A model generated the notes under the pieces. That model worked only from the letters and a program-made list of their open reading frames with translations, made no database searches and had not been told where the DNA came from. The position numbers and the translations under genes were made by a program. A stretch of 64,000 nt of DNA from NCBI GenBank assembly GCA_963793255.1, contig CAWBZK010000005.1, positions 543-64,542 on the forward strand. The letters are read 5' to 3'. Positions 3,100-43,975 of this stretch are shown in pieces. Source of the DNA: an uncultured Acidobacteriota bacterium (lineage in GTDB: Bacteria; Acidobacteriota; Vicinamibacteria; Vicinamibacterales; SCN-69-37). Positions within the stretch are counted from its first letter, which is position 1; each line of letters begins with the position of its first letter.

Positions 3100-3442
3100 G
3101 AGTCGTGATCGAAGGAAGGTGGTCAAGGGTCCGTTCCTGTCGACGTTCTCGGCGCAGGACACGGTGGTCGGCAGGGCCGTACGCGATCATGTCGCGGCTG
3201 GCCGGCGACAACACCAGGGAGATCGGCGACGCCTCCGACGAGTACGGCGGCATCGGCCGGAACGGACCGCTGCAAGACGACGAAGTGACGACCGGCCGCT
3301 CCACACGCCGGGGACCGCCTACGACTACCAGGCCGACGTCATCAACAATCTCGACGGGTCCGGCGGGTTGATCAAGGACCACAGCGACGTGACCAACGAG
3401 GCCATCACCTACGCCTTCGCGTCGGCGGTCGCGCGCACGTGA
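3100..3442 (+). pseudogene. 3' remnant of an unidentified gene (possibly alpha/beta-hydrolase-like)
   Basis: Readable only as a C-terminal fragment across two or three frames: FSAQDTVVG / AYAIMSRLAGDNTREIGDASDEYGGIGRNG / GTAYDYQADVINNLDGSGGLIKDHSDVTNEAITYAFASAVART-stop. No N-terminal part or start codon lies upstream. The family assignment is a guess. Confidence 0.3.
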
Positions 3443-3478
3443 GCCCGCTGCGCTATATTCCCGTGATGAGGCGCTCGC

Positions 3479-4912
3479 GTGATCGGCACCGGACGATTCA
3501 GACGTTGGCTGGCCGGCGCCACCGCCGCGCTGCTCGCGGCGTGTGTCTGGGCGCTGCACCGGCCGCGAGTCCGACCCGGCGGACATCGTCACCGAGTTCA
3601 AGTACGGCGCCGTCGGCACCGAAGAGACCGTCGGCGTTCCGTACTGGCTGTGGGTGCGTGCTTCCCGAGGTGTTTCCCGACAAGCTGCCGAACCGTCCGG
3701 GCAACGGCTACGAGCGCCTGGGGTTCATCTACGAGACGCCGACCAGCGACCTGCCGATCGGCGCGTCGAGGAGCGGCGGCTTGCTCCCGCGCGTCGGCTT
3801 GAATTGCGCGACGTGCCACGCCGGTACCTACCGCGACGCGCCCGGCGCGGCGCCCACGATCGTGCTGGGGATGCCGGCGCACCAGATGGATCTCCAGGGC
3901 TATGCGCGGTTCCTGTCCGCGGTCGCCAAGGATCCCCGCTTCAACGCCGAGACGCTCATCCCGGCGATGCAGAAGCATCGCCGGGTTCGGCTTCTTCGAC
4001 GGCCTCGTCTACAGGTTTTTCGCGATCCCCCGCACGAAGGAGGGCATCCTCGAACGGGACAAGCGGATCGCGTGGTTCGACACGCGGCCGCCGCAGGGTC
4101 CCGGCCGCGTCGACACGTTCAATCCGTACAAGGCGATGTTCGCCGAGGACAACAACTTCGAAATCGACGACACCGTCGGCACGGCCGACCTGCCGTCGCT
4201 GTGGAACCAGCGGATGCGCCAGGGATTGTGGCTGCACTGGGACGGCAACAACAACTCCGTCGACGAGCGCAACAAGAGCGCGGCGATTGGCGCCGGCGCG
4301 ACGCCCGATTCGCTCGATCTCGACGGCGCTCGACCGGGTCGCGAACTGGATTCTCGACCTCAAGCCGCCGGCCTACCCGGCCGCGCGGATCAATACCGAC
4401 GCTGGCGGCCGCCGGCGCGCCGATCTATCGCGCGCAACTGCGCGAGCTGCCACGACATCGGCCAGCCGCGGGTCGGCCAGACGATCGACATCGCCGAGAT
4501 CGGCACCGACCCGGAGCGGCTGCGATCGTTCACGCCGGAGCTGGTGACGCAGATGAACACCATCGGCGACGGGACAGGCCGTGGCGCTTCTCGCATTTCC
4601 GGAAGACGAACGGCTATGCCGGCATGCCGCTCGACGGCATCTGGCTGCGCGCGCCGTATCTCCACAACGGCTCGGTCCCGACGCTGCGGGCGCTGCTGTT
4701 CCTCGACGAGCGTCCGGCGCGGTTCTATCGCTGCCTACAACGTCTACGACTGGAGCGGCGTGGGCTTCGTCTCGACCGGACCTGAAGCCGAGCAGCAGGG
4801 CGTCGAGTTCGACACGTCGCTGCGCGGCAACGGCAACGGCGGCCACACCTACGGCCGCGAGTTGTCGGTTCCGGACCGCGAAGCGCTGCTCGAATACCTG
4901 AAGACGCTCTGA
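3479..4912 (+). CDS. di-haem c-type cytochrome (peroxidase-like family), heavily frameshifted
   Basis: About eight frame changes join pieces of all three plus frames into one protein of about 475 aa. It has a membrane anchor/signal (RFRRWLAGATAALLAACVWAL). Two CxxCH motifs are present: NCATCHAG (codons at 3805-3819) and NCASCHDIG (4449-4463). The conserved C-terminal block is GMPLDGIWLRAPYLHNGSVPTLRALL ... EALLEYLKTL-stop. Confidence 0.7.
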
Positions 4913-5190: not shown

Positions 5191-6660
5191 ATGCCACGAG
5201 TCACGATCCTCCTGTCGGGTCTGTACCTTCTGTGTCTGTCCGCTCCCGTCGACGCGCAATCTCCGCCGCTGTCGCACGTGCTCGTTGACCTGCTCGTGCG
5301 AGGGGTCACGATGCCCTCGACGACGCAGTCGGTTCCGGGAAATCCTCACGAGGCGCACTTCCTGCCTGGGCTGTCTCAGCGACAGACGCCGTTCGAAATC
5401 AACAAGGCGATCGTCGGACAGCTCGGCACGTTTCCGATCGGATCGTCGTCGGCGGGTTCTCGTTCGGCCCGACCGGAGAACGGTTGAGCAACAGCTTCGG
5501 TCCGAGCTTTGCGGAGCGCGCGCTGACGAACGGGCGCGGCCGGTTCGACGTCGGCATGAACATCCAGCGGCTGGAGTTCGACTCCTTCGAGGGCGCCGAC
5601 CTCAACAACGTCAGCGCGCTCAAGCGCATCCCCTTCGTGCTGCAGCACAACGACTGTTGTCCGGGTCAGTCCACGACGGGCACGCCGGCCGGCAACAACG
5701 ATGCGACCAACCCCGCGTTCGAAGGCGATCTCATCGAAGTCTTCCTGGCGATGAAGGTGAGCACGACCACGTTCGCGCCGTTCCTCACGTACGGCATCAA
5801 CGACCGATGGGACGTGAGCGTGGTCACGCCGATCGTGAAGGTCAATCTCCAACCCAGCATTCTGTCGATCATCGACCGGGTCTCGACCGCCGCCAACGCG
5901 GCGATCCACAGCTACGACGGCAACGGACTGAGCGTGCAGGAGGTCACGACCGCGGAGTCAGCGGGCGGGTTCGGCGACCTGACGTTGCGCACGAAGTACC
6001 GGGTCAAGGACATGAACCGTGGGGGATTTGCGGCCGGCCTCGACTTGAGATTGCCGACGGGTGACAAGGAGGAGCTCCTCGGCACTGGCGCGGTGCAGAC
6101 GACGGTCTATCTGATCGCGTCTCAGGAGAGCGACCGGATCGGGACACACGTGAACTTCGGATACATGGCGTCGAGCGGGACGCTCTCGGAAGCGCTGACC
6201 ACATTGGAAATCCCGTCGTCGGGCCTCCCAGGCAGCGAGACGCCATACCAGACGATCTTCCCGAACGGAGTCCCGGACAACACGATCCCGCTGGACCTGC
6301 CTGACGAAATCCGTTACGCCGTCGGCGTGGACATCGCGGCCCACCCGCTCGTGACCGTCTCCGCACATCTCATCGGCCGCGCGTTGCTCGACACGCAGCG
6401 CTTCGGCATGAATACGCAGACATTCAACTTCCGGACCCAGAACGACGGACCGATCTTTCAGACCAGCCGGCAGGCGTTCGACACGACCGGGAGAGGGACG
6501 CTGAATCTCCTGATCGGCACCGTGGGCGCGAAGTTCGCCATCCCGGGAAAGCAGATGCTGCTACCGCCAATCTGTTGTTCCCGCTGAACAATTCCGGGTT
6601 GCGGCCAAATCCGACCCTGACATTCGGACTGGACTACTCGGGCCGTCGCGGGACCAACTA
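5191..6660 (+). CDS. outer-membrane beta-barrel protein (MetA-pathway/transporter-type family), frameshifted
   Basis: Good SD (GAGGTG) precedes the ATG, followed by signal peptide MPRVTILLSGLYLLCLSAPVDAQ. The sequence shows an alternating beta-strand pattern with GFGDLTLRTKYRV and LDLRLPTGDKEELLGTG motifs. Frames join near 5468 and 6560, and the last strand reads TLTFGLDYS. The family call is from memory. Confidence 0.5.
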
Positions 6661-6669
6661 GATTGTGAA

Positions 6670-6720
6670 AAGGGGTCGGGACGATTTTTAAGTTCGACGT
6701 AAGAAGCGTCCCGACCCCTT
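6670..6720. terminator. palindromic hairpin element (copy 1) between convergent genes
   Basis: AAGGGGTCGGGACG (6670-6683) and CGTCCCGACCCCTT (6707-6720) form a perfect 14-bp stem with a 23-nt loop, followed by ATTTTGGG. It lies after the OMP stop (6660) and overlaps the last codons of the TIR gene as currently framed. Confidence 0.6.
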
Positions 6721-8907
6721 ATTTTGGGAGCCACCCTCCTTGGCGGAGGCAACACTCCACACGTTGGCGGATCGGCGCAGGTTCAGTGTCACCGGCACCC
6801 GTGGCGTCAGTTTCTCGCCAAAGATTGTCGTCGCGACGAGGCGTCGGGTAAAGGTGGCGGTCGCAGAATCGCCGTCGATTGAAGTTTTCTTGTCGTCAAG
6901 AGCGACCTCGAGGATTTTGAGGTTGCCGAAATACCTTTTCCACGCATCGGCGGAGCGCGACGGGTCGAGTTGCGCGACCGCGACGTGGTCTCGTGCGCGA
7001 AACGCGGCAACGTACCGGTCCAGCAGTTGCTCGATTTCCTTTTCCCTGGACGGAGGTGGTGGTGGTGGTGGTGGTGGTGGCGGCGACATGGTCAGGGCGT
7101 TCTTGAATCCCGTCGCCGCCTGCCAGAGAAGTGGGATGGCATCGGTCGGCGGTCTGGTCGCCGTTGGGTCATCTTGCCTTGTGCATCGACGTACGGCGCG
7201 CTCTCTCGTGCGGTCGCAGGGACTGCGTCTCGAAGGGTCTGCGCCTGAGACTGCGCTCGATTCAGAAGCGGTGCCAGGAGTTCGTCGAATCTCTTGTCTG
7301 ACGGGAACGCGCGCCTGCCGGCGGTCACCTCGCGGAACGCATCGGCGTCCGACCGATCCCGTATCGTCAATTGAACGCGTGCGAATGCGGCATCGGCCGC
7401 GGCAGCTGCCGCCTCGTAGAGACCGGCCGCCTCCAGCAAGAGCCCCACGCCCCGCGAGGTGTTCCGGCAACCACCGCCTGCTGTTCGCGACTCGCGGCAT
7501 TCGCATAGGCCTGCGTCCTGTCGGCCGGCCCGGCGGCTGTTCGGGCGGCCTCGAGCCGTGTCTTCGCCCGAGTGGCCAGCGCCGCCAGCATCCTGTCGAA
7601 CTCGCCTTCCGACGGGTATTTCAACTTCCCGTCGTCGAATCGCCTTGAGCGCCGCCGCCTGGTCGCCGCCACCGAGCAGTCGCTGGGCGTGAGCAATCGC
7701 GACCTTCGGCGAATCGATGTCCGCGGCCGCCCGATCGAACAACGCGACGGCCTCCCGAGTGAGGCCAATCGTGCTCGCGACCTGTCCGGAACTCGCCGCG
7801 GACTGTGCCTCTTTTTCCTTCGCAACCGCCAGGGCGTAGCTCGTCGAGTTGCGGACGGGCTCGGCCGCGTTCCTGGCCAGCCGGAGCTCCTCACGGGCGC
7901 GTTGGAGCAGCACGGCCAACATCGGATCGAACCGGCGCTCGGCCGGGAACTTCGCCTGTCCGTCGGAAATGGCCTTGAGCGCTTCACGGTCCCGGCGAAG
8001 ATCGAGAAGCTCTTGCGCGGCTTCAACCGCTGCGTCGGATGGGACCGGCGGTCCGGACTTTGACGAATGAGTCCGCGGCGCCCCAAAGCAGCGGGATTGC
8101 CTTGAGCGGGTCTGACGCGACGAGCTGGTTGGCCTGCTCCTCCAAGTCCGCTGCCGCCGCGAATCCAGAGGTGCCCTTGGCGCTGTCGGCCTCGGTGCGA
8201 GCTCGGGCGACTCGTTCCCGCGCGCCTGTCAGAAGCTGCTGGCGTAGGCCTATCAGGCGCGCGTTGTTCGAATCGATCTGGAACGCCGCCGAGAGCTCGA
8301 GCAGCGCCTCCTGACTCTTGCTCTCGACCACGAGCGCTTCGATTTGCTCGATCTTGCCGTCGGGAACCGTGGGGCCAGGCGTCGGTGGCCACAGCGCCAC
8401 GGTTGCAATCACAGCGACGACGGCTACGCCTCCGGCCAGCCACTGCCACCGACGGCGGAACCAGAGCAGCAGTGAGGGCTGAGGCCGAGGGGGCTGAGGT
8501 ATTGGACCAGGCCGGGGCCTCGGCACATGGTGAGCAACCCCGGCGCACAGGCCCTCGAAGTCCTCTGAGGACACGTCGTTGTCCCAACTGCTGAGATTGG
8601 CCCAGTTCTGCTGACCGAATCCAAATGGCGGACGAACGTCTTCAATGAGCGCCTGGACCAGGACGCCCCGCTTCACGCTGTGATCCGCCTCGTCCCTGAC
8701 GAACGGCGATGCGACGGAGGCTTTCGACCAGAGCACGAGCACACACGAGACTTCGTTGAGCTGGCGCTCGATCTCCTCGCGGAAGTCAACGCCCGGCCGG
8801 AGCTCGCGGTCCCACCACACGTCCCAGCCGATCGATTCGAGTGCGTGAGCAATCTGCCGCGCTCGCGGCAGGTCTTCACGCGCGTAGCTCAGGAAGATGT
8901 CGGCCAT
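6688..8907 (-). CDS. TIR-domain single-pass membrane protein with tandem helical repeats, poly-Pro hinge and NTF2/SnoaL-like C-terminal domain (frameshifted)
   Basis: The N-terminus MADIFLSYAREDLPRARQIAHALESIGWDVWWDRELRPGVDFREEIERQLNEVSCVLVLWSKASVASPFVRDEADHSVKRG fits the bacterial TIR_2 pattern. One TM helix follows (WQWLAGGVAVVAVIATVALW). Four frame changes (about 8055, 7648, 7460, 7165) join ORFs 8023-8907, 7092-7922, 7367-8587 and 6688-7506 into a protein of about 740 aa. The 3' end is uncertain (stop at 6688, or 6719 if there is a further frame error). Confidence 0.8.
7052..7084. repeat. trinucleotide microsatellite (GGT)8 flanked by GGA/GGC, encoding Pro11 on the minus strand
   Basis: ggaggtggtggtggtggtggtggtggtggcggc read directly. 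The minus-strand codons are CCG CCA x8 CCT CCG, giving 11 Pro between MS and SREKEIEQLL. Confidence 0.95.
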
Positions 8908-11508: not shown

Positions 11509-13981
11509 ATGCAGGCCCTTATCCAGGACGTCCGGTACGCCTTCCGGCTGCTCGCCAAGGATCGGAGTTTCACCATCACCGCGGTCCTGACGCTGGCGAT
11601 CTGCATCGGCGCCAATACCGCGATGTTCGGCCTGATCCGGTCGGTGCTGCTCAAGCCGCTCCCCTTCCCCGGGTCCGAGCGGATCGTCTATCTGTTCAAC
11701 AGCTATCCAAATGCGGGCGCTCCGCGCGTCGGCGCGGCCGTGCCCGATCTCTTCGATCGTCTCGCCTCGGTGCCGGCCATGGACGTTCAGGCGCTGTTCC
11801 AGACGGGGACGCAGACCTATGGCGACGACAGCAGCGCGTCGCAGCTGAATTCGCTGCGCGGCACGCCGTCGTTCTTTCGCCTGGTGCAGGTTCAGCCCGT
11901 GCGCGGCCGTCTCTTCACGGACGCGGAAGGCGAGCCCGGCCAGGATCGGAAGGTTCTGCTGAGTCATGGCCTGTGGCAGCGCACCTTCGGCGGCAGGGAC
12001 ACCGTTGTCGGCACCTCGATTCGTTTGAACGGACAGCCCCACGAAGTCGTGGGGGTGCTGCCCCAGGGCTTCACGTTCCTCCAGAATGATCTCGACGTCT
12101 TCCTGCCGGCGGCGTTCCAGCCGCAGGCCAAGTCCGACAACGCGCGCCACAGCAACAACTGGCAGATGGTCGGCCGCCTCAAGGACGGCGCGACGCTCGA
12201 TCAGGTGCGCCAGCAGGTCGCCGCGCTGAACGCGCGGAACGACGAACGGTTCCCGCAGTTCCGGCAGATTCTCAAAGACGCGCACTTCCAGACGATCTCC
12301 GTGATGCTGCAGGACGACGTCGTGCGCGACGTCAAGACGTCGCTGTACCTGCTGTGGGGCGGCGTGTCTTCGTGCTGCTCATCGGCGTCGCCAACATCGC
12401 GAATCTGATCATCGTCCGATCCAGCGGCCGCCGGCGGGAGCTGGCGACGCGCCACGCGATTGGCGGCGACCTGGGCCGCCTCGCCCGCCAGCTCGTGACC
12501 GAGACGACGGTGCTTTCGATCACGGGCGGCGCCTTCGGCGTGCTGATCGGCTGGTGGACCCTGCGGTCGATGGCGAAGCTCAACCTCGCGATCGCTGCCG
12601 CGCGGGTACGAGATCGGGCTCGACTGGATCGCGCGTCGCCTACATCGTGGCGATCACGCTCGCGGTCGGCATCTGTCTCGGCGTGGCGCCCGCCCTTCGG
12701 CTGCGCCGAATGAACCTCAACCTCGAGCTCCGCGAGGAGAGTCGCGGCGGCACCTCGAGCCGGCGCGCGAACCTCATTCGGCGCGGGCTGGCCGTCGTGC
12801 AGGTGGCCGTCGCGCTCGCGCTGCTCGTCGGCGCCGGCCTGCTGTTCGCGAGTTTCCGGGCCGTGCTGCGGCTCGACCTCGGCTTCGATCCCGCAGAACG
12901 TCATGACGGCGGCCGTGGCGCTCCCGGGCTCGCAGTTCCCGGATCCTGCCGTCGCTCGTGACGTTCGAGCAACGCGCGCTCCAGGCGATTCGCGCGCTGC
13001 CTGACGTCGAAGCGGCCGGCACGACGTCGGCCGTGCCCTTCTCCGGCGCGCATCAACAACAACGTGATCATGGCCGAGGGGTACGTGATGAAGCCAGGCG
13101 AGAGCTTGCTGGCGCCGTCGAGCGTCAACGTCAACCCGGGCTACTTCGAGGCCCTGCACGTCGCAGCTCGTCCGCGGCCGCTTGATCGACGCGCGCGACA
13201 CGCAGAAGTCGCCGCCGACCGTGATGATCGACGACCGGCTGGCCCGGAAGTTCTGGCCGGATCAGGATCCGATCGGCCGCCGGCTGTATCTTCCAAGCGA
13301 TCCCGCAGACATCACGAAGATCACGGAGAAGACGACGTTCCTGACGATCGTCGGGGTGATCCGGGAAATTCGGATGCTCGACCCGCGGCCCGACGTGACC
13401 CCGGTCGGCACCGTGTATTTTCCCGTGGGAGCAGAATCCCGGCCGCGGCCCGACGATCGTGGTCAAGACGCGCCGCGACGCGCCCGCGATCCTCAGCAGC
13501 ATCCGGCGCGAGATCGCGGCAATCAATCCGCAGGTGCCGGTGTTCCGCGAGCGGACGATGCAGGAGTGGATCGATCGGCAGCTCATCGGCCGCCGGCTTC
13601 CGATGTTCGTCGCGCTGGCCTTCGGCGTCGTCGCGCTGTTGCTCGCGGCCATCGGGATGTACGGCGTGCTCGCCTACAGCGTCAACGAGCGCCGCCGCGA
13701 GCTGGGCGTGCGCATGGCCCTCGGCGGGTCGTCAGGCAAGCGTCTTCGGCCTGGTGCTCCGCGATGGCGCTCGCGTGATCGCTGCCGGGCTGGCGCTCGG
13801 CCTGATCGGGTCCTACTGGGTCGGTCGTGCGGTGCAGAGCCAGCTCGTCGACGTCGCGCCGCTGAACCCGCTCGTGTTTCTGTCCGTCGCGGCGCTCCTG
13901 TCGGTCGTCGGAATGACCGCGTGTCTCATTCCCGCCTGGCGCGCGAGCCGGATCAACCCGGTCGTCGTGCTCGCGCGCTAG
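11509..13981 (+). CDS. ADOP-family MacB/FtsX-like permease (acidobacterial duplicated orphan permease), heavily frameshifted
   Basis: Typical ADOP N-terminus [54 protein letters not shown]. There are two FtsX-type 4-helix modules (…[12 protein letters not shown]…; …[13 protein letters not shown]…) and the C-terminus [18 protein letters not shown]-stop. About eight frame changes were stitched from ORFs 11446-, 12354-, 12554-, 12958-, 13064-, 13182- and 13459-. Confidence 0.8.
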
Positions 13982-14081
13982 ATCCGATCGGTCGGACGCG
14001 TCGCTCAGCCTAGCGCTGGCCGTTTACGCCGTTCGTCCCGAATTACCTCTGAAGTAAGCTCGCCGCGGCCGTTTCACTCTC

Positions 14082-34998: not shown

Positions 34999-36073
<1,075 letters not shown>

Positions 36074-36189
36074 TCAGCGCTCGCGCTGTACGCGCTCGGC
36101 TTCGGGCTGCCAAGAAGAACAGCGTAGCGTCCTGCCTTCCGGCTGAGTAGACGGCAAAATCGACAAAGGTTTGTGAGTACCATTCATGA

Positions 36190-37075
36190 ATGGTCCGAGA
36201 CGAGCTCAGCGTCCTGTCGGCGTTCCTCGCGGTGGCCGAGGACCGTAGCTTCACGAAGGCGGCCAAACGGACTGGGCGTCTCCCCTTCGGCGTTGAGCCA
36301 CGCGATTCGCGGACTGGAAGAGCGGATTGGCGTGCGCCTGCTCGCGCGAACGACGCGGAGCGTCGCGCCGACCGAGGCAGGCGAACAGTTCATCGCGCGT
36401 CTCGGGCCCGCGCTCGCCGACGTTCGTGGCGCGCTGGACGAGGTGTCCGGCCTGCGTGACAAGCCGGCCGGACGCGTGCGGTTACTGCTGCCGCGGACGG
36501 CGGCGAGGACCGTGCTCGCGCCGAAGCTGGGACAATTTGCGCGCAACTACCCGGACATCGTGCTCGACGTCACGACCGACAACAGCCGTCTCGACCTCGT
36601 CGCGTCGGGCTTCGACGCGGGCATTCAGCTTGGGGAGTTCATCGAACAGGACATGGTCGCGGTTCGAGTCTCGCCCGACCACCGAGCCGCCATCGTGGGT
36701 TCGCCGCGCTATTTCGAGTCGCATCCGAGGCCGAAGTCGCCACGCGACCTGCCGGGCCATCGATGCATCAACTTTCGACATGGAGCCGAGGGCGTGTATC
36801 GCTGGGAGTTCGACAAGGGCCGCCAGTCCCTCGTCGTCGCCGTGACGGGGCCACTGATCGTCGACGACGCGGAGATCATGGTGGGCGCGGCGATCGATGG
36901 AGTGGGTCTGGCGTTTACGGCGGAGGAACACGCAGCGGAGCACCTGGCGAGCGGCGCACTCGTGCGCGTGCTGGACGACTGGTGTCCGCCGTTCGCGGGG
37001 TACTTTCTCTACTACCCAAGTCGCCGGCAGCAGCCAGCCGCGCTCTCGGCCCTCATCGAGACCCTGCGTCTGTAG
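36190..37075 (+). CDS. LysR-family transcriptional regulator, one frameshift
   Basis: The HTH region reads LSVLSAFLAVAEDRSFTKAAKR / LGVSPSALSHAIRGLEERIGVRLL. The frame is restored by deleting the A at 36271. A LysR substrate-binding domain follows. The gene is divergent from the aldo/keto reductase. Confidence 0.85.
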
Positions 37076-38466
37076 CCTGATCGAACTCCATCGGACGTGT
37101 GACGACCTGACCCTGCGGATCGCGGCGGACGATATCCGACAGAGAACCTCGATCGCCGGTCGACTCCCCGATCGCACGGACCATCATGCGATGCTCTTCG
37201 ATTCTGACCAGCAGAAAGTGGCACTCGGAGCTCCACGATTGAGTGTGCGCGTCCTCGAATCGATCGGGCGCTCCAGCACGCGCTCGGCCTGCGGCACCGG
37301 TGACGAAGTACTCGATGCCGCCGACGCTCGAGTGTTGAAAATTGTGTTCGTGCCCGCTGAACATGGCTCGCACGCCGGCGCGCTGAAGGAGCGGCAGCAG
37401 CGTCTCCATCAGGCGCGTGTTGTGATGTCTCGGTCCTGCGCTGAAGGGCGGATGGTGCGCGAATGGAATGCACCACCTCGGCGAGGTCCGCCCCGGAGAA
37501 AATGCCGCTTCGACGAACGCCAGGTGCTTCGGGAGCAGAAAGAGCCTCCCGCCTTTGAAGAACGCCTCTTTCGACGTGTCGATACACACGAACTCGATAT
37601 CCGATCCGTAGTGAAACCGGTAGAACAACCCCGGGCCGAAGGAGGCGCGGCCCGCAGCCTCTTCTCCCGCGAGACGTTCGCACAGGTAGAAGTTGTCTTC
37701 GACCTGAGCGCGGTCGTCGCACGCCTCCGACTCATCCGCGTCGTGATTGCCAATCGACGGGTAGACCGGCAGACGATTGATGATGTAGCGGTACGGCTGG
37801 AAGTACGTGAAGAACCAGTCGTCGTCTTCGTCCCCAGTCGAGCCGATAGGAATACCGAGGAGTCTTTTCGCGGCGTAGATGTTGTCGCCCGTCGTGAGGA
37901 TGAGGCGAACGCCTTCCCGATCGACCGCCTCGCGGAGGGCATCCGCGACCTGTTGCTGACGGCGTGTGTCCGACACGTTCTTCACGCCCACGCCGAAGTC
38001 GCCGATCACCGCGAACGTCAGAGACGATGGCGTCAAAGGATTCGGGTGGGTGTGAAACCGGTTGTCGTACCGGCCACCTGCCTGCACGAGCGCCTTGTCA
38101 GTGGCGGACCAATCCCAGCGCTGCCCTTCGGCCCACTCCTGACCTTTGACGAACACCTTGTACGTGTAGTCGGTATCGGGCTGCAGGCCTGTGACCCAGC
38201 AATGATTCGTGACTTCGGTGTTGGCGCTGGCCACGACGTTCCCGCCCTCGTCAGAGACCTCAACGCGTGCGGGTCCGTAACGGAGCCGAGCGTGCGCCGA
38301 TTGAGTCCTTGCGCGGCGGATGCACGTACTTCAGATCGTCGTCGTCCACGAGCTTCGATGCGCCGCGGCTGGTGACGCGAAAATAGAAGGCGCCCCACGC
38401 GATCAGCGCCGCCTTGTGCGTCACCGCTGGCAGATAGATGAACGGTTCGGCGTGAAACTCAGGCAT
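37053..38466 (-). CDS. calcineurin-like metallophosphoesterase (purple-acid-phosphatase-like), one frameshift
   Basis: The N-terminus has an FN3-like region (PAVTHKAALIAWG). Metallophosphoesterase motifs: IGDFG, GDNIY, GNHD, GHEHNF. Frame change near 38250. The ATG at 38466 overlaps the PAP2 stop by 8 nt, and the 3' end overlaps the LysR gene by 23 nt. Confidence 0.7.
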
Positions 38467-39473
38467 CGATCAAGGACCGCGTCGTCATGTGGTGAAGCGC
38501 CCAGATCGGAACCAACAGCATCGCGGCAGCAGGCACAGCGCTCGCCGCGAGTCGTCCGCCTCGCGAGTCGAGTACGCCGGCATGGTCGAGTCCGAAGGTC
38601 ACGATCATCCAGGCCGCGGCGAAACCCGCCGCGGCGAAGAGCACAAGAAGCGCACGCGCACGCCAGGCGTCTGGAAGATCGACCAGGTCGTGCTGCGCCA
38701 CGACCATCGCGGCACAGGCAATTCCCAGCAACCGTCCGGAATCGGCCACGTCGGGGTACCCAGTGAGCAGCGCGATCACGGCAAGCGCCGTGGCGACCAG
38801 CACGCTCGGCCACGTTGCGCGTGCGTCCGCGTCGGTCGTGGGAGGGCCGGCCAGCTCGCGGAGGCGCAGCAACGCGATCGCGAGGACGGTCGTGACCGCG
38901 GCGACCACGAGTCCGCCGATCACATCCCCGATGAAGTGCCGGCCCAGATACAGCCGCGACAGACCCATGAGCGGCAGCCATACCAGCAGGCCCTCCCCAC
39001 GCCGCCCTCCATCCGAACAACACGAGCATCCCGAGCAGCAGCGCCGCCGTTGTGCTGACGTGACCGGACGGAAAGCCGAACCCCCCGTCACTGTCCACGT
39101 CGTCGTCTGCCGCGTCCGGGTCGAGGGCTGCCGGCGGCGTGATCGCCCGCGGCGAATCCCACCACCCAGTCGCCGCATTCCCCCGCCATCGCGTCCGCGG
39201 TGGCGCGTGCGAACCGAGAAGCAGCACACGGCTATCTACCGCGTACGGCCTTGGCGACGACGTCACGCGTTTCGCTACGTCGGTCGCGAGGCTGTTGAGT
39301 CCAATCAGGATCAGCACGGCCAGGGCCGGCCGTAGCCGATACACGAACGCGATGAGCGTCACGAGCGCGATGGCCGCCCTCGTGTAGCCGAAGAGCGAGA
39401 CGTAGTCCATGGCGAGCGTGAGTCCAGGTGACGCCCGCGACTGGAGCCACAGGATCGGCTCTATCAAGAACAT
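38459..39473 (-). CDS. PAP2-family membrane phosphatase, frameshifted
   Basis: PAP2 motifs are split over two frames: KRVTSSPRP … FPSGHVSTTAALLLG / SRLYLGRHFIGDVIGG. Multiple TM helices. The ATG at 39473 overlaps the upstream stop by 1 nt (TGATG). Confidence 0.7.
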
Positions 39474-40552
39474 CAGGCACACCGCCGGCCGGCGATCTCG
39501 TCGCGTTTCTGTTTGAACACGCGCACCCAGTCGTCGATGCCGGGCCGTGCCAGCGCCGGCGACGCACCCGCCGGCCCCCGGAGGTCGAACCGGCTGACTT
39601 CGAACACGTCCCGTATCTGTCGATCGGAGAGGCGTGCGAGAAGCCCGGCAAGGAACTGCCGCCCTTCCTCGCTGATTTGAGGGTTACCCAGCGTGCCGGT
39701 AAACGAGCGCGACAGGTTGCCGACGCAACCGTGGGCGTCTTTCCACACTGGCGCGTCCGACCACGCCTGAAAGTTCGCGCCGCCGAGGGCATTGTCATTG
39801 AGAAAATTGGCGACGCCAAACGTGAGGCCCACGTCATTGAGCATCAGAAACGGACGGCGGCACCGCGCGGGGTGTTTTGATTGCGGCTCGTCGATGCACA
39901 GCAAACGCTGTTGCTCGGGTTTGTTGTCGGTGTGCTGAAGGAAGACGGCGATCAGTTTGAGTGCGTCGATCTCGCGGCGCGAGGCGCCGCCTGCCCGCGT
40001 GTCGAGCGCGTCGATCTCCGCCCACGACCATCCCGGATCGTCGTCGAACTGGGCGCCCGCCATCTCGCGCTCGATGACTGCCGGATCGAACACGGTGGTG
40101 TTCGAGCCCGACGGTTTTCCACCGAACCGCGCGGGACAGCCCCGGCACCGGACACGAACCGGGTACATGCGGTCGGCGCCGAAGCCGAGCGCCCACAAGA
40201 GCCGCGTGGCGGCTACCTCGCCATACACCTCGCCATTCGACTTGCCCACCTTGACCTTCACGACGTCTTCCCTGCCAACATCACACGCGAACTTCAGCGA
40301 GTGGCCGCCCAGCGGCTTGTCGACGTGGTCACAGTCGACGGTCGCCAGAAAGCGGAATCCGCCTTGGCCTGGCGGGCCTTCCCGGATGTCCATTTGTTCG
40401 ATGGCCGTCGGGCGCCAGACTTTTGCGCGGAGGAGGGCTTCGCTACGTTCCGGTACCGCCCGTGAAGGCAGGTCCGAGTCTGGGCGAGGCTCGGCGCACG
40501 AGCACGCGAGCGAAATCGCCACGGCCGCGGCAGAGACCGAGAGGTGTCTCAC
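39473..40552 (-). CDS. exported hypothetical protein with protein-kinase-like motifs
   Basis: Uninterrupted 359 aa with N-terminal signal MRHLSVSAAAVAISLACSCA. Kinase-reminiscent motifs: VVKVKVG (beta3 Lys), GEVAATRLLWALGF (alphaC Glu), FLQHTDNKPEQ (HxDxKxxN-like loop) and MLNDVGLTFG (DFG-like). The function is inferred only. Confidence 0.55.
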   Translation of the reverse strand: MRHLSVSAAAVAISLACSCAEPRPDSDLPSRAVPERSEALLRAKVWRPTAIEQMDIREGPPGQGGFRFLATVDCDHVDKPLGGHSLKFACDVGREDVVKVKVGKSNGEVYGEVAATRLLWALGFGADRMYPVRVRCRGCPARFGGKPSGSNTTVFDPAVIEREMAGAQFDDDPGWSWAEIDALDTRAGGASRREIDALKLIAVFLQHTDNKPEQQRLLCIDEPQSKHPARCRRPFLMLNDVGLTFGVANFLNDNALGGANFQAWSDAPVWKDAHGCVGNLSRSFTGTLGNPQISEEGRQFLAGLLARLSDRQIRDVFEVSRFDLRGPAGASPALARPGIDDWVRVFKQKRDEIAGRRCA

Positions 40553-40600: not shown

Positions 40601-41200
40601 CTACCGGTTTGAGGACGCTTTCCGCTTGGGCTGGTTCTTCGAGCCAGATGCGACGGCGATCGGTTCCTCGTCGTCTTCCTCTTCTTCTCCGTCGTCGTCG
40701 CCATTCGCGGCGTCGGCCGCTTCCTGGTTCAGTCCACCTTCAGCAAGCTGCGACAGCTTCTGGTCCGCGGCCTTCTCCTCGTCCAGATTCTTCTGAAGCA
40801 GCTTCGCGGCGTCGTCGTGCCCCATGACGCGGGCCCACGCGACGAGCGTGCCGTAGGCGGCCATTTCGTAGTGTTCGGCCCGTTGACCGGCGGCGATCAG
40901 ACAGGCATCCATCGCCATATCGTCGAAGTCTTCCTCCATCACCGACTTGCCCTCCTCGATGATCCCGGCAATACCGTCGCAGTGCTTGCCTTTCACCTTC
41001 TCGTCGAGGCTCTCGAAGACCTTCTCGAGGCGCTCGATTTGTCCTTCGGTCTCGACCAGGTGGGACTCGAAGGCCTGGCGGAGTGGTGGCGCGGTCGCCG
41101 CTTTCGCGAGTTTGCTGAGGGCCTTGGTCAACTGCTTCTCGGCATCGTACGCGTCCCGGAGTTCGTCGATGAATGCGTCGTGGAGTGTGTGTTCAGCCAT
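40601..41200 (-). CDS. ferritin-like DUF892 (YciE/YciF family) stress protein with acidic C-terminal tail
   Basis: Uninterrupted 199 aa from MAEHTLHDAFIDELRDAYDAEKQLTKALSKLAK… The motif …EHYEMAAYGTLVAWA… is typical of DUF892. The tail reads GDDDGEEEEDDEEP. Confidence 0.8.
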   Translation of the reverse strand: MAEHTLHDAFIDELRDAYDAEKQLTKALSKLAKAATAPPLRQAFESHLVETEGQIERLEKVFESLDEKVKGKHCDGIAGIIEEGKSVMEEDFDDMAMDACLIAAGQRAEHYEMAAYGTLVAWARVMGHDDAAKLLQKNLDEEKAADQKLSQLAEGGLNQEAADAANGDDDGEEEEDDEEPIAVASGSKNQPKRKASSNR

Positions 41201-41503: not shown

Positions 41504-42189
41504 ATGGACATGCGCCGGACACCGCGACGTCACGTGCTGATCGCGCTGGCGGTGGCAGTGGTCACCGTCGGAGCGAAGGGGCAGGACGCGGCGGATCGTT
41601 CCATCGAACAGTTCCTGGCGCGCAGTGAGGGGCAGCCCTCCTATCGAGCCACGCGGAAGCTGGTCGCGGAGAACGGCAGCCGGCGTGGCTGGCTCGATGC
41701 CGTCACGACCTATTCCCCGGCGACCGGCCTCGCCTACGAGGTCACGGGCGAGGGGGGGTCTGGCTACATTCGAAACAAGGTCTTGCGCGCCGTCCTCGAG
41801 GGCGAGCGGGAAATCATCGCGCGCGGCGAGGCGGCTCGCTCATCGCTCGAACCATCCAACTACACGTTCCTCGCCAACGGCGTTGACGCCGACGGGCTGG
41901 CCAACGTCCTGATTTCACCACGACGGAAAGAGCGGGTCCTGCTCTCGGGCACGATGTTCCTGCGAGCGGCCGAGGGCGATCTCGTTCGGCTTCAAGGCCG
42001 GCTCGCCAAGAACCCGTCGTTCCTGGTCAAGAACGTCGACGTCGTCCGAAGTACGAGCGGATTGACGGCGTGATTGTCCCGGTCTCGCTCGAATCAACCG
42101 CCCAGCTTCGATTCCTCGGGGAGGCCACGCTGCGCATGACCTACTCCTATTCCGAAATCGAGGGTCGTGCCGTTCAGTCTCTGCACTAG
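41504..42189 (+). CDS. secreted hypothetical protein (LolA-fold / lipoprotein-sorting-like?), one frameshift
   Basis: Signal peptide MDMRRTPRRHVLIALAVAVVTVGAKGQ. A frame change near 42050 joins to YERIDGVIVPVSLESTAQLRFLGEATLRMTYSYSEIEGRAVQSLH-stop. The fold suggestion is weak. Confidence 0.4.
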
Positions 42190-42214: not shown

Positions 42215-42914
42215 TTACCCGGTCCCGTTGCGTGTCTTTCCATTGCCACCACGCGCGCCGTACAGCGCGATTTGCCGCGCCACTTCGGCCGAGACCTTGT
42301 GCGCGGCCAGAGAACCATCAATGTCAATCAGCCGTGATCGGTGTTGGTAGGTACTCGAGCAGGGGCCCGGTGCGGTTCCGATACAGGAACAGGCGACGCT
42401 TGATGGTCGCTTCGTCGTCGTCATCGCGCTGCTCGAGGGGTGCCCCGCAGTACGCGCAGTTTCGCTGTCCTGAGTTCTGGCTGCTGACAGACTGGGGCGT
42501 TCGACAACGGGTGCATACCCGGCGGGAGATCAGCCGCCGCTCGATTTCCACCTCGGGGACGTGGAGCGCGACGACCACGACCGCCGGTTCGCCGGCGAAC
42601 CGATCGAGCGCTTCAGCTTGAGCGACCGTTCTCGGGAAACCGTCCAGGACGAACCCGGCGGCGGCGTCCGACTCGGCCAGGCGCTCACGAATCAGCTCGT
42701 TCATGACGTCGTCGGTCACGAGCTCGCCAGTGGCCATCAGGGACTTCACCGATTGCCCGAGCGGCGAATTCGTCGAGACGGCTCGGCGGAGCGTCTCGCT
42801 GCTGGAAATCGTCGGGATTCCCAGGCGCGCGCTCATCCAGGCGGCCTGCGTTCCCTTTCCGGCGCCGGGAGGGCCCACGAGCACGAACCGAGACGGCGTA
42901 CGAGGACGCTTCAT
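42215..42914 (-). CDS. adk: adenylate kinase (zinc-lid type), one frameshift
   Basis: P-loop FVLVGPPGAGKGTQA and GFVLDGFPRTVAQAEAL. The lid carries CTRC…CAYC, followed by RDDD…IKRRL. A frame change near 42340 joins to YYQHRSRLIDIDGSLAAHKVSAEVARQI. Confidence 0.85.
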
Positions 42915-43975
42915 AGATTGACTATCGCCGACTTCGGCTCCGCCATTCCAGGTACAGCGTCGCCGGCGGTACGCCGCCAGAAACCGGTCGTCCTCCCGAT
43001 ATGTCGTGGGATAGACGACGGGCACCGGTCGCGGCGTCAGGGTTTCATCGACGTTCACGAACGTGAAGACACAGGTGTTGGACAAGGCCGTCTGCTGACG
43101 ATCGAGGCCAAGGCGCTCGATGTCCGTTTCGACTGAGACGCTGTGGCCCTCGGCGTAGGTGACACGGCTCTGAAACCGCAGCCGGTCACCCATGCGCACA
43201 GGTTGATTGAAGTTGATCCGGTTGACGCTCACGATGACGGGCCGATTGGGCGCCACCAACTCCGCGCAGATCGCGCTTTGCTCGGTACGCTTTCCGTCAC
43301 GACGTAGCCGCCGAAGATTTTCTTCGGCACGTTCTCCTGTTCGGGATACATGCGTTCCCAGCCTGTCGTCATGAGGTCGCGGGCGAGCAGACCGCGGAAT
43401 GCCGGTTCTTCCTGCGCGGCGTGCAGGCGCTGGAGGTGAAGATACTCATCGCGACTCGGTGGTTCGGCCGCTGCGCTCAGCGCCGTTCGGTACGCATCCC
43501 GTCGCGCCCGGGCTCCCGCCCAGCGCAGCCGCGCCGTTTCGTCCGGAGGTTCAAAGAGCGGCACCTGGAGACTTCGAGTCTCGTCGGCCGATCGCGCCAC
43601 CATCGTGAAATAACACGATGCGATATGGATAGACGGCGTCCCGTCCGCACCGGGCGGATGCTCGCACCGGATTCCGACCTCCAGGCTGCTTCGTCCCACG
43701 AAGTTGATGCGAGCGCGCAGTCGCAGGTCTCGATTGATGTCGGCAGGCCCCCGGACCTGGATCTGGTCGACGGCGGCCGTCACGACGCCTGCGTCGGGCA
43801 GATGACGTCGGACGTAGGCGAGCGCCACGTCTTCCGCGAGCTTGTCGAGCACCTCCAGCAGCTTCCCAAACCGGATGTTGCCGGCGACCGGCTGATCGAT
43901 GAGCATGAACTCTCGACGCAGCCGGGCGTCGGCTTCCAGGGGCAGAAGCTGTACCTGTTCGAAAACGTCGTTCAC
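42911..43975 (-). CDS. acyl-CoA thioesterase (double hot-dog), frameshifted
   Basis: Two hot-dog halves: …GNIRFGKLLEVLDKLAEDVALAY…RLRARINFVGRSSLEVGI… and …IFGGYV…NRPVIVSVNRINFNQPVRMGDRLRFQSRVTYAEGHSVSV… Frame changes lie near 43260 and 42960. After correction, the stop overlaps the adk start (ATGA). Confidence 0.65.

Follow-up and report, generated by a model that had tools for sequence, protein, structure and literature searches.

Why would a bacterium export a protein with the features of a kinase, and why would it encode that protein directly against a membrane phosphatase? This question is raised by three consecutive minus-strand genes in the window, i.e., the whole stretch of 64,000 nucleotides analyzed here, taken from contig CAWBZK010000005.1 of an uncultured bacterium of the Vicinamibacterales (Acidobacteriota). 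The first gene encodes an exported protein of an undescribed family (here K1), the second a PAP2 integral-membrane phosphatase and the third a metallophosphoesterase (MPE). An earlier note on this DNA, made from the sequence letters, had suggested that the three act together, phosphorylating and dephosphorylating a lipid or glycan of the envelope. Our analysis supports a smaller unit. The conserved core is K1 together with PAP2, not the trio, and the exported, disulfide-bonded kinase-like domain fused to PAP2, as found in relatives, is a new architecture.

By sequence, K1 lies outside every named kinase family, including the PI3/PI4-kinases (PF00454). Neither Pfam (E ≤ 0.01) nor NCBIfam placed it in a family, in agreement with the earlier note, which had recognized none; profile searches of the PDB with a close K1 alignment, and with a diverse alignment that included the K1 paralog K2 (see below), found no kinase. 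Pfam at E ≤ 10 on 42 diverse members likewise returned no kinase family, and gave chance matches only, e.g., ribosomal protein L29. The family is represented by more than 3796 matches in a 90%-clustered collection and by 1348 clusters at 50% identity, and every named member is a "hypothetical protein". The genome matches come nearly all from metagenome-assembled genomes of Vicinamibacterales or other Acidobacteriota, often with several paralogs per genome. Two K1 paralogs are divergent in locus L084 (4767-5696 on the minus strand and 6001-6993 on the plus strand), and a K2-like gene lies just upstream of K1 in locus L074 (5117-5755), which suggests that kinase-like paralogs tend to cluster.

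It is the predicted structure that connects K1 with kinases. An AlphaFold2 model based on 64 homologs (predicted local distance difference test, pLDDT, 88; predicted template-modelling score, pTM, 0.86) was compared with the PDB by Foldseek, and the best 50 matches were all kinase-like proteins, led by CtkA of H. pylori (E 4e-5, probability 1.0) and PI4KIIα, with HipA/HipT, CotH, CK1, SidJ and AceK among the others. By its predicted fold and its motifs, K1 belongs to the kinase-like superfamily, as a motif series in its translation had led the earlier note to suspect. The residues of that series proved invariant in the 64 homologs (K101, E108/E112, H207, D209, K211, Q214, D240 and G242) and fall on the secondary-structure elements expected of them: K101 on predicted β-strand 97-102 (β3), E108/E112 on the next helix, 107-122 (αC), the catalytic loop 206-214 (H207-T-D209-N-K211-P-E-Q214) after an αE-like helix, and D240-V-G242 after a short strand. 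Even when the K2 paralogs, which are ~20% identical, are added to the alignment, D209, D240 and G242 stay invariant, and the loop consensus of the wider K1+K2 family is the canonical pattern QHxDNKxxN. K1 has a predicted bilobal kinase fold, with a β-sheet and αC helix in the N-lobe and a helical C-lobe, and a complete set of phosphotransfer residues.

The export of K1, also proposed before, is borne out by its homologs. Among 146 full-length sequences, 85 carry a hydrophobic segment followed by a cysteine with G, A or S just before it (position -1), and a further 54 begin with a hydrophobic stretch of another kind. The alignment of 64 homologs contains eight invariant cysteines (the median number per protein is also eight), and four disulfides are probable. 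In the window protein the N-terminus reads ...AISLACSC, where the conserved cysteine is preceded by A-C-S and is non-canonical when set against the lipobox [LVI][ASTVI][GAS]C; judging from these N-termini, K1 is probably lipid-anchored. R36 and W46 are invariant and lie upstream of the NCBI-style ATG (M54) that gives a shorter call of 306 aa, so the 359-aa GTG start, which includes the signal, is the correct one. One relative, P0197 (878 aa), has a subtilase (Peptidase_S8) domain fused ahead of its K1 domain, another sign of K1 working outside the cytoplasm.

The association of K1 with PAP2 holds from either side. From the K1 side, K1 is immediately followed by a full-length homolog of the window PAP2 in 8 of the 80 genome loci; on the K1 tree these eight fall in the region of the window, interspersed with loci without PAP2. 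From the PAP2 side, 37 of the closest relatives have sufficient upstream sequence, and in 33 of these K1 directly precedes PAP2; in more distant relatives this is so in 3 of 33. The spacing varies from a TGATG overlap through a 0-nt gap and gaps of 50-100 nt up to complete in-frame fusion (L013, L015 and L020). When a fusion was used as the seed of a search, ~90 of 120 clusters among the matches listed were themselves fusions of 600-730 aa, annotated only as "membrane-associated phospholipid phosphatase". All five catalytic motifs occur in one chain in 69 sequences, and an alignment of the fusions shows no variation in either motif set. The co-conservation foreseen for the trio was thus found for K1 and PAP2, often as one polypeptide, and not for MPE, which joins them in the closest clade only. 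Start/stop overlaps are frequent in operons and mean little on their own; what exceeds chance here is the conserved adjacency and the fusions, not the codon overlaps.

Split and fused forms are collinear. The separate K1 ends in ...RRCA and the separate PAP2 starts with MFLIEPILWLQS, and the fusions read ...RRCxxxWSxxxPxLFGTGPxxWLQS across the same region. Their order is signal peptide, K1 domain, two membrane helices and PAP2 motif C1, and the profile alignment to PgpB begins at the equivalent of the second membrane helix of PgpB. The model of one fusion (P0124, 693 aa; pLDDT 88.5, pTM 0.86) has two helices between the K1 domain and motif C1, and its K1 half gives the same kinase-like fold matches; because the model is confident as a whole, it suggests a fixed arrangement of the two domains. 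Since K1 is fused to PAP2, and the active sites of membrane PAP2 enzymes (PgpB, LpxE/T, LPPs, G6Pase) face the periplasm or lumen, K1 would lie on the periplasmic, active-site face, and both catalytic centers are predicted to be on the same side of the membrane.

No universal neighbor of K1 was found in the loci; the other recurring neighbors (urease, two-component and bacilliredoxin-like genes) reflect synteny in single clades, and an open reading frame (ORF) family present in 42 loci, considered as a universal neighbor, was rejected as a shadow ORF inside K1 itself. In one K1–PAP2 subclade, a convergent OmpR-type response regulator, a HisKA sensor kinase and a single receiver domain come directly after the pair (L017, L021, L023, L091, L092, L098, L099, L101, L102, L107, L110, L112 and L119), with the OmpR/HisKA-type genes located 0.1-2.5 kb downstream of PAP2 on the opposite strand. 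A CGC-motif bacilliredoxin-like gene is downstream instead in L106, L108, L109, L116, L122 and L123. Another K1 clade has ureG-, ureF- and ureC-like urease genes beside it on the opposite strand (L032, L043, L049, L053, L056, L063, L066, L068, L070, L072, L076, L081 and L083), which is probably plain synteny. Besides, a K1 paralog without PAP2 is followed directly by a gene for an S1/P1 nuclease (L016:6899-8428), a third kind of phosphoesterase beside the family.

The assignment of the second gene to the PAP2 membrane phosphatases holds, with a Pfam match and all three motifs of the family. These motifs, C1 KxxxxxxRP, C2 PSGH and C3 SRxxxxxHxxxD, are read directly in the window as KRVTSSPRP, PSGH and SRLYLGRHFIGD and are invariant in homologs. 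The second fragment of the window gene scores 31.7 bits with Pfam PAP2 (PF01569; cut-off 27.2) and the intact ortholog in L005 66.7 bits; the NCBIfam equivalog scores are far below cut-off. By profile the closest structures are YodM/PgpB, LPP and LpxE, and the PAP2 core superposes on LpxE with a TM-score of 0.83. The core together with the C-terminal four-helix extension (P0124 ~370-693, in the fusion model) matches human G6PC1 over ~360 columns, a coverage of the PAP2 half that exceeds that of any bacterial lipid phosphatase and that hints at a glucose-6-phosphatase-like nine-helix architecture in bacteria. The substrate of PAP2 could be either a lipid phosphate or a sugar phosphate. PgpB, YodM, LpxE, LpxT and G6PC1 share the three motifs or the profile with the second gene, but none of them has an attached kinase-like domain.

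The third gene was correctly read as a purple-acid-phosphatase-type metallophosphoesterase lacking a signal peptide. It matches Pfam Metallophos (E 2.8e-12; 47.9 bits, cut-off 21.5), and its translation contains the ligand motifs GDFG, GDNIY, GNHD, AHH and GHEH; in the PDB, mammalian purple acid phosphatases come closest to it in sequence, although the similarity is weak and partial (E 1e-7). The five metal-ligand motifs GDxG, GDxxY, GNHD, xxxH and GHxH are shared with the mammalian ACP5/uteroferrin type, from which MPE differs by an extra N-terminal β-domain and by having no signal peptide. That N-terminus (MPEFHAEP...) is conserved and scores below the cut-off of 30 bits with both Pur_ac_phosph_N (19.2 bits) and PhoD_N (18.1 bits). 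Characterized purple acid phosphatases are secreted or lysosomal. The MPE family comprises more than 120 clusters at ≥69% identity.

Its distribution bears on the cycle of the earlier note, a single three-gene cycle in which an envelope lipid or glycan would be acted on by the exported kinase and by two phosphatases, one on either side of the membrane. The same genes occur in the same order with tight spacing in L005, L087, L088, L089, L093, L097 and L169, as such a cycle would have it. Yet the trio is confined to the closest clade (MPE follows K1–PAP2 only in the loci just named and in L085 and L086), and most K1–PAP2 pairs, as well as the fusions in L013, L015 and L020, do without MPE. In the seven loci examined from the MPE side, the trio is found in one, K2 lies beside or near MPE in four, and MPE is accompanied by neither in two. 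The three-gene cycle also meets the objection that K1 faces the periplasm, where we know of no ATP pool, and we consider it quite improbable. K2, the more usual companion of MPE, is a K1 paralog of ~350 aa (27% identical, E 2e-9); clusters of four genes, K1–PAP2–MPE–K2, are present in L005, L087 and L089, and K1–MPE–K2 clusters in L001-L003. Its N-terminal membrane helix precedes an Arg-rich flank, and it lacks conserved cysteines; because of the positive-inside rule and these unconserved cysteines, the catalytic domain of K2 is probably cytoplasmic. As MPE usually partners with K2, each face of the membrane may have its own kinase-like/phosphoesterase pair, one matching the other.

The variety of phosphatases around K1 also recalls phosphate scavenging, with K1 binding extracellular nucleotides or phospho-esters and PAP2 and MPE releasing the phosphate. 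K1 adjoins three unrelated types of phosphoesterase (PAP2, Metallophos and, in L016, the S1/P1 nuclease), the JGI name of the third protein is tartrate-resistant acid phosphatase, and the PAP2 half, extension included, is similar to glucose-6-phosphatase and class A acid phosphatases. Against this, MPE has no export signal, neither the window nor the sampled loci have pst or pho genes close by, and PAP2 is an integral-membrane enzyme of the PgpB/LpxE type rather than a soluble class A enzyme. Mere binding would also not need conserved kinase catalytic residues, and scavenging seems to us distinctly unlikely.

Based on the conserved pairing, the fusions and the predicted topology, we propose that the operon is built around a two-part, periplasm-facing K1–PAP2 unit that would handle the phosphate state of one membrane-associated phospho-compound, a reading to which we give an even chance. 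On this compound, either a lipid head group or a sugar phosphate, K1 would transfer a phosphoryl group and PAP2 would take one off or provide one, the two acting as one machine with both centers on the outer face of the inner membrane. MPE may be a cytoplasmic accessory that was recruited in the closest clade and whose usual partner across relatives is K2; K2 and MPE may form a related pair on the cytoplasmic side. The analysis shows the fold, the conserved residues, the export signals, the adjacency, the fusions and that the genes are intact; the catalytic activity, the substrate class, the phosphate donor and any cycle we infer.

Several observations weigh against the proposed unit. K1 is generally independent of PAP2, with ~70 of the 80 genome loci having K1 without PAP2 beside it. 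The TM-scores of its fold matches are moderate (0.43-0.53), there is no sequence-level link to any characterized kinase, and the window clade has a glutamine in place of the canonical metal-binding asparagine. A conventional kinase reaction in the periplasm would have no donor known to us. Fusing a kinase to a phosphatase with a shared substrate would set up a futile reaction, except where the two work one after the other or on different groups. A lipid substrate is not assured, because the PAP2 half with its extension matches glucose-6-phosphatase best. On the cytoplasmic side, the positive-inside rule and the unconserved cysteines are the only grounds for probably placing K2 there, and the lack of a recognizable signal is the sole ground for placing MPE there.

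Some of these observations would also fit a K1 that is a non-catalytic kinase-fold module, serving as a lid, for substrate recognition or regulation, by which the PAP2 site is fed or gated. The periplasm without an obvious phosphate donor, the rigid and confidently predicted two-domain arrangement of the fusion (pTM 0.86) and the exchange of the canonical asparagine for glutamine in the window clade all speak for such a role, and pseudokinase scaffolds are common in the kinase-like superfamily. But even between K1 and K2, at ~20% identity, the Asp of the catalytic loop, that of DxG, β3 Lys and αC Glu vary little or not at all, a pattern typical of active enzymes, and most K1 genes have no PAP2 partner. 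We regard a non-catalytic K1 as unlikely.

For a K1 within the proposed two-part unit, the options for the phosphate donor are scavenged ATP, a lipid pyrophosphate as used by LpxT, a different chemistry on the kinase scaffold, or a non-catalytic role. LpxT is a periplasm-facing PAP2 enzyme able to transfer phosphate from undecaprenyl pyrophosphate, and not merely to hydrolyze it. A more specific version would make K1 an ATP-independent periplasmic phosphotransferase, taking phosphate from a lipid pyrophosphate (e.g., undecaprenyl pyrophosphate) or from the PAP2 phospho-enzyme and passing it to an envelope lipid or glycan, with K2 and MPE as the pair at the cytoplasmic face. This is a rather improbable scheme in our estimate; if true, an enzyme of the kinase fold would for the first time be seen to use a donor other than a nucleotide.

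Compared with known systems, K1 has the same order of elements (β3 Lys, αC Glu, HxDxK..N/Q loop, DxG Asp) as CtkA, PI4KIIα, HipA and CotH, but no similarity to them in hidden Markov model comparisons (Pfam, PDB), and TM-scores of 0.4-0.5. Four probable disulfides, a bacterial signal or lipobox and a fusion to PAP2 are not known for any of the four. Palmitate anchors PI4KIIα to the membrane, where its target is a lipid head group, and CtkA and CotH act outside the cytoplasm of the producing cell. The Fam20 family and POMK are also kinase-fold, disulfide-bonded proteins that act outside the cytosol, on proteins or glycans, and POMK is among the weak fold matches of K1 (secretory-kinase matches had probabilities of 0.1-0.2). 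These secretory-pathway kinases depend on ATP imported into the Golgi or the endoplasmic reticulum; to our knowledge, bacteria have no equivalent of this supply.

We found in the literature no account of the K1 family or of a periplasmic kinase–PAP2 fusion, and no precedent for a periplasmic kinase of the K1 kind. The sole partial precedent is a preprint on SEAE1 (WP_147203046.1), another bacterial kinase-like family that had not been described before. Its catalytic core is intact, PAP2 lies nearby in Segetibacter, its closest structural matches are lipid kinases, and the authors propose for it a lipid kinase/phosphatase module (bioRxiv 10.64898/2026.09.18.752743). SEAE1 is reported to be intracellular and to occur mainly in Bacteroidota and Verrucomicrobiota, and its PAP2 neighborhood is lineage-specific: it is confined to 4 of 20 genomes of Segetibacter, with no co-transcription predicted (bioRxiv 10.64898/2026.09.18.752743). 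By description, K1 is set apart from SEAE1 in being exported, in belonging to the Acidobacteriota and in its translational coupling or fusion to PAP2.

If K1 is active, either ATP is supplied outside the cytoplasm or the kinase fold uses another phosphate donor, and either outcome would change the view of phosphorylation in the envelope, as kinase-fold enzymes are thought to need cytoplasmic ATP. The K1 family is concentrated in the Vicinamibacteria, which are abundant and little-studied soil bacteria, and the natural K1::PAP2 fusions offer a ready-made construct for biochemistry.

In the window, the PAP2 and MPE genes are each interrupted by one frame change, which raises the alternative that both are decaying pseudogenes and the cluster a non-functional remnant. 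The break in PAP2 is one extra C at 38989/38990 (GGGCCTG in the window, GGGCTG in L085), and that in MPE one extra T at 38279/38280 (CCGTTAC in the window, CCGTAC in L085). L085, a 2778-bp metagenome contig, is 97% identical to the window over 37.0-39.1 kb with two gaps only, both at the frameshift sites, and gives the corrected PAP2 junction as LFGWRAAWGGLLVWLP. Both changes are single-base homopolymer insertions. With intact orthologs as tblastn queries, each gene appears as two pieces that meet cleanly (at 38281/38279 in MPE), with 73-90% identity on both sides and no other stops or damage; PAP2 aligns over its full length with eight intact homologs, its Pfam matches fall in two frames of the window gene, and an intact 470-aa MPE that is 98% identical exists (P0412). 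Unrelated genes of the window are split likewise, with Pfam profile positions continuing from one frame to another in an aldo-keto reductase (104/105), the helix-turn-helix of a LysR regulator (24/23) and an FtsX permease (39/40), and a codon-position composition model detects many more direct same-strand frame switches. Because the 97%-identical L085 lacks both insertions and the window carries many similar errors, the frame changes are, judged from these alignments, assembly errors and not the real inactivations that would have undone the earlier note, and the pseudogene explanation is hardly credible. The window assembly is probably an error-prone, long-read one, and any apparent pseudogene in it should be distrusted. 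Further frameshift sites include 3289-4909(+), 12090-14010(+), 35002-36073(-) and 36173-37075(+) of the window, and many others; a RoxA-like cytochrome c, an FtsX/MacB permease, the aldo-keto reductase and the LysR regulator are among the unrelated genes affected.

The features of the cluster and the K2 copies of related loci are collected in the table below.

Table. Genes of the K1–PAP2 cluster and its surroundings in the window, and K2 copies in related loci (K2 positions are those of the respective locus)
Feature	Position	Strand	Description
K1	39473..40552	-	Exported protein of 359 aa, lipobox-like, from a protein-kinase-like family not described before; starts with GTG; from the ORF listing
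PAP2 integral-membrane phosphatase	38459..39473	-	337 aa once repaired; PgpB/LpxE-like core and C-terminal four-helix extension
Purple-acid-phosphatase-type metallophosphoesterase (MPE)	37053..38466	-	470 aa once repaired; without signal peptide
DUF892 (YciE/YciF-like) gene	40601..41200	-	Pfam DUF892, E 2.7e-61; context only
LysR-type regulator, convergent	36173..37075	+	Pfam LysR_substrate and HTH_1; helix-turn-helix split between frames
K2, locus L002	10592-11641		N-terminal helix paralog
K2, locus L005	6162-7181		N-terminal helix paralog
K2, locus L170	3250-4278		N-terminal helix paralog
K2, locus L172	7509-8555		N-terminal helix paralog
K2, locus L166	4941-4126	-	N-terminal helix paralog

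Re-reading the minus strand confirmed the coordinates of the three genes and both overlaps described earlier: the K1 stop TGA (39475-39473) shares one base with the PAP2 ATG (39473-39471) in TGATG, and an 8-nt overlap joins the PAP2 stop to the MPE ATG (ATGCCTGA, 38466-38459). A scan for promoters and terminators found no sigma-70-like promoter and only weak intragenic hairpins. At the downstream edge of the cluster, the end of the LysR gene overlaps the stop region of MPE; in relatives this position is occupied by K2, of which there is no match anywhere in the 64-kb window. Upstream, the DUF892 gene is real and lies on the same strand 48 nt from K1, as the earlier note had it, with no terminator-like site in the gap, but this neighborhood is not conserved: a DUF892 gene is near K1 in 1 of 84 loci, there on the opposite strand. 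The DUF892 gene is incidental and outside the conserved unit. Divergent from it, an ORF of 189 aa at 41504-42073(+) has a signal-peptide-like N-terminus and no Pfam match. Further on, at 42324-43259(-), one uninterrupted ORF combines a hotdog-thioesterase-like C-terminal part with a complete adenylate kinase (GPPGAGKGTQ), which may be a real fusion or another indel artefact.

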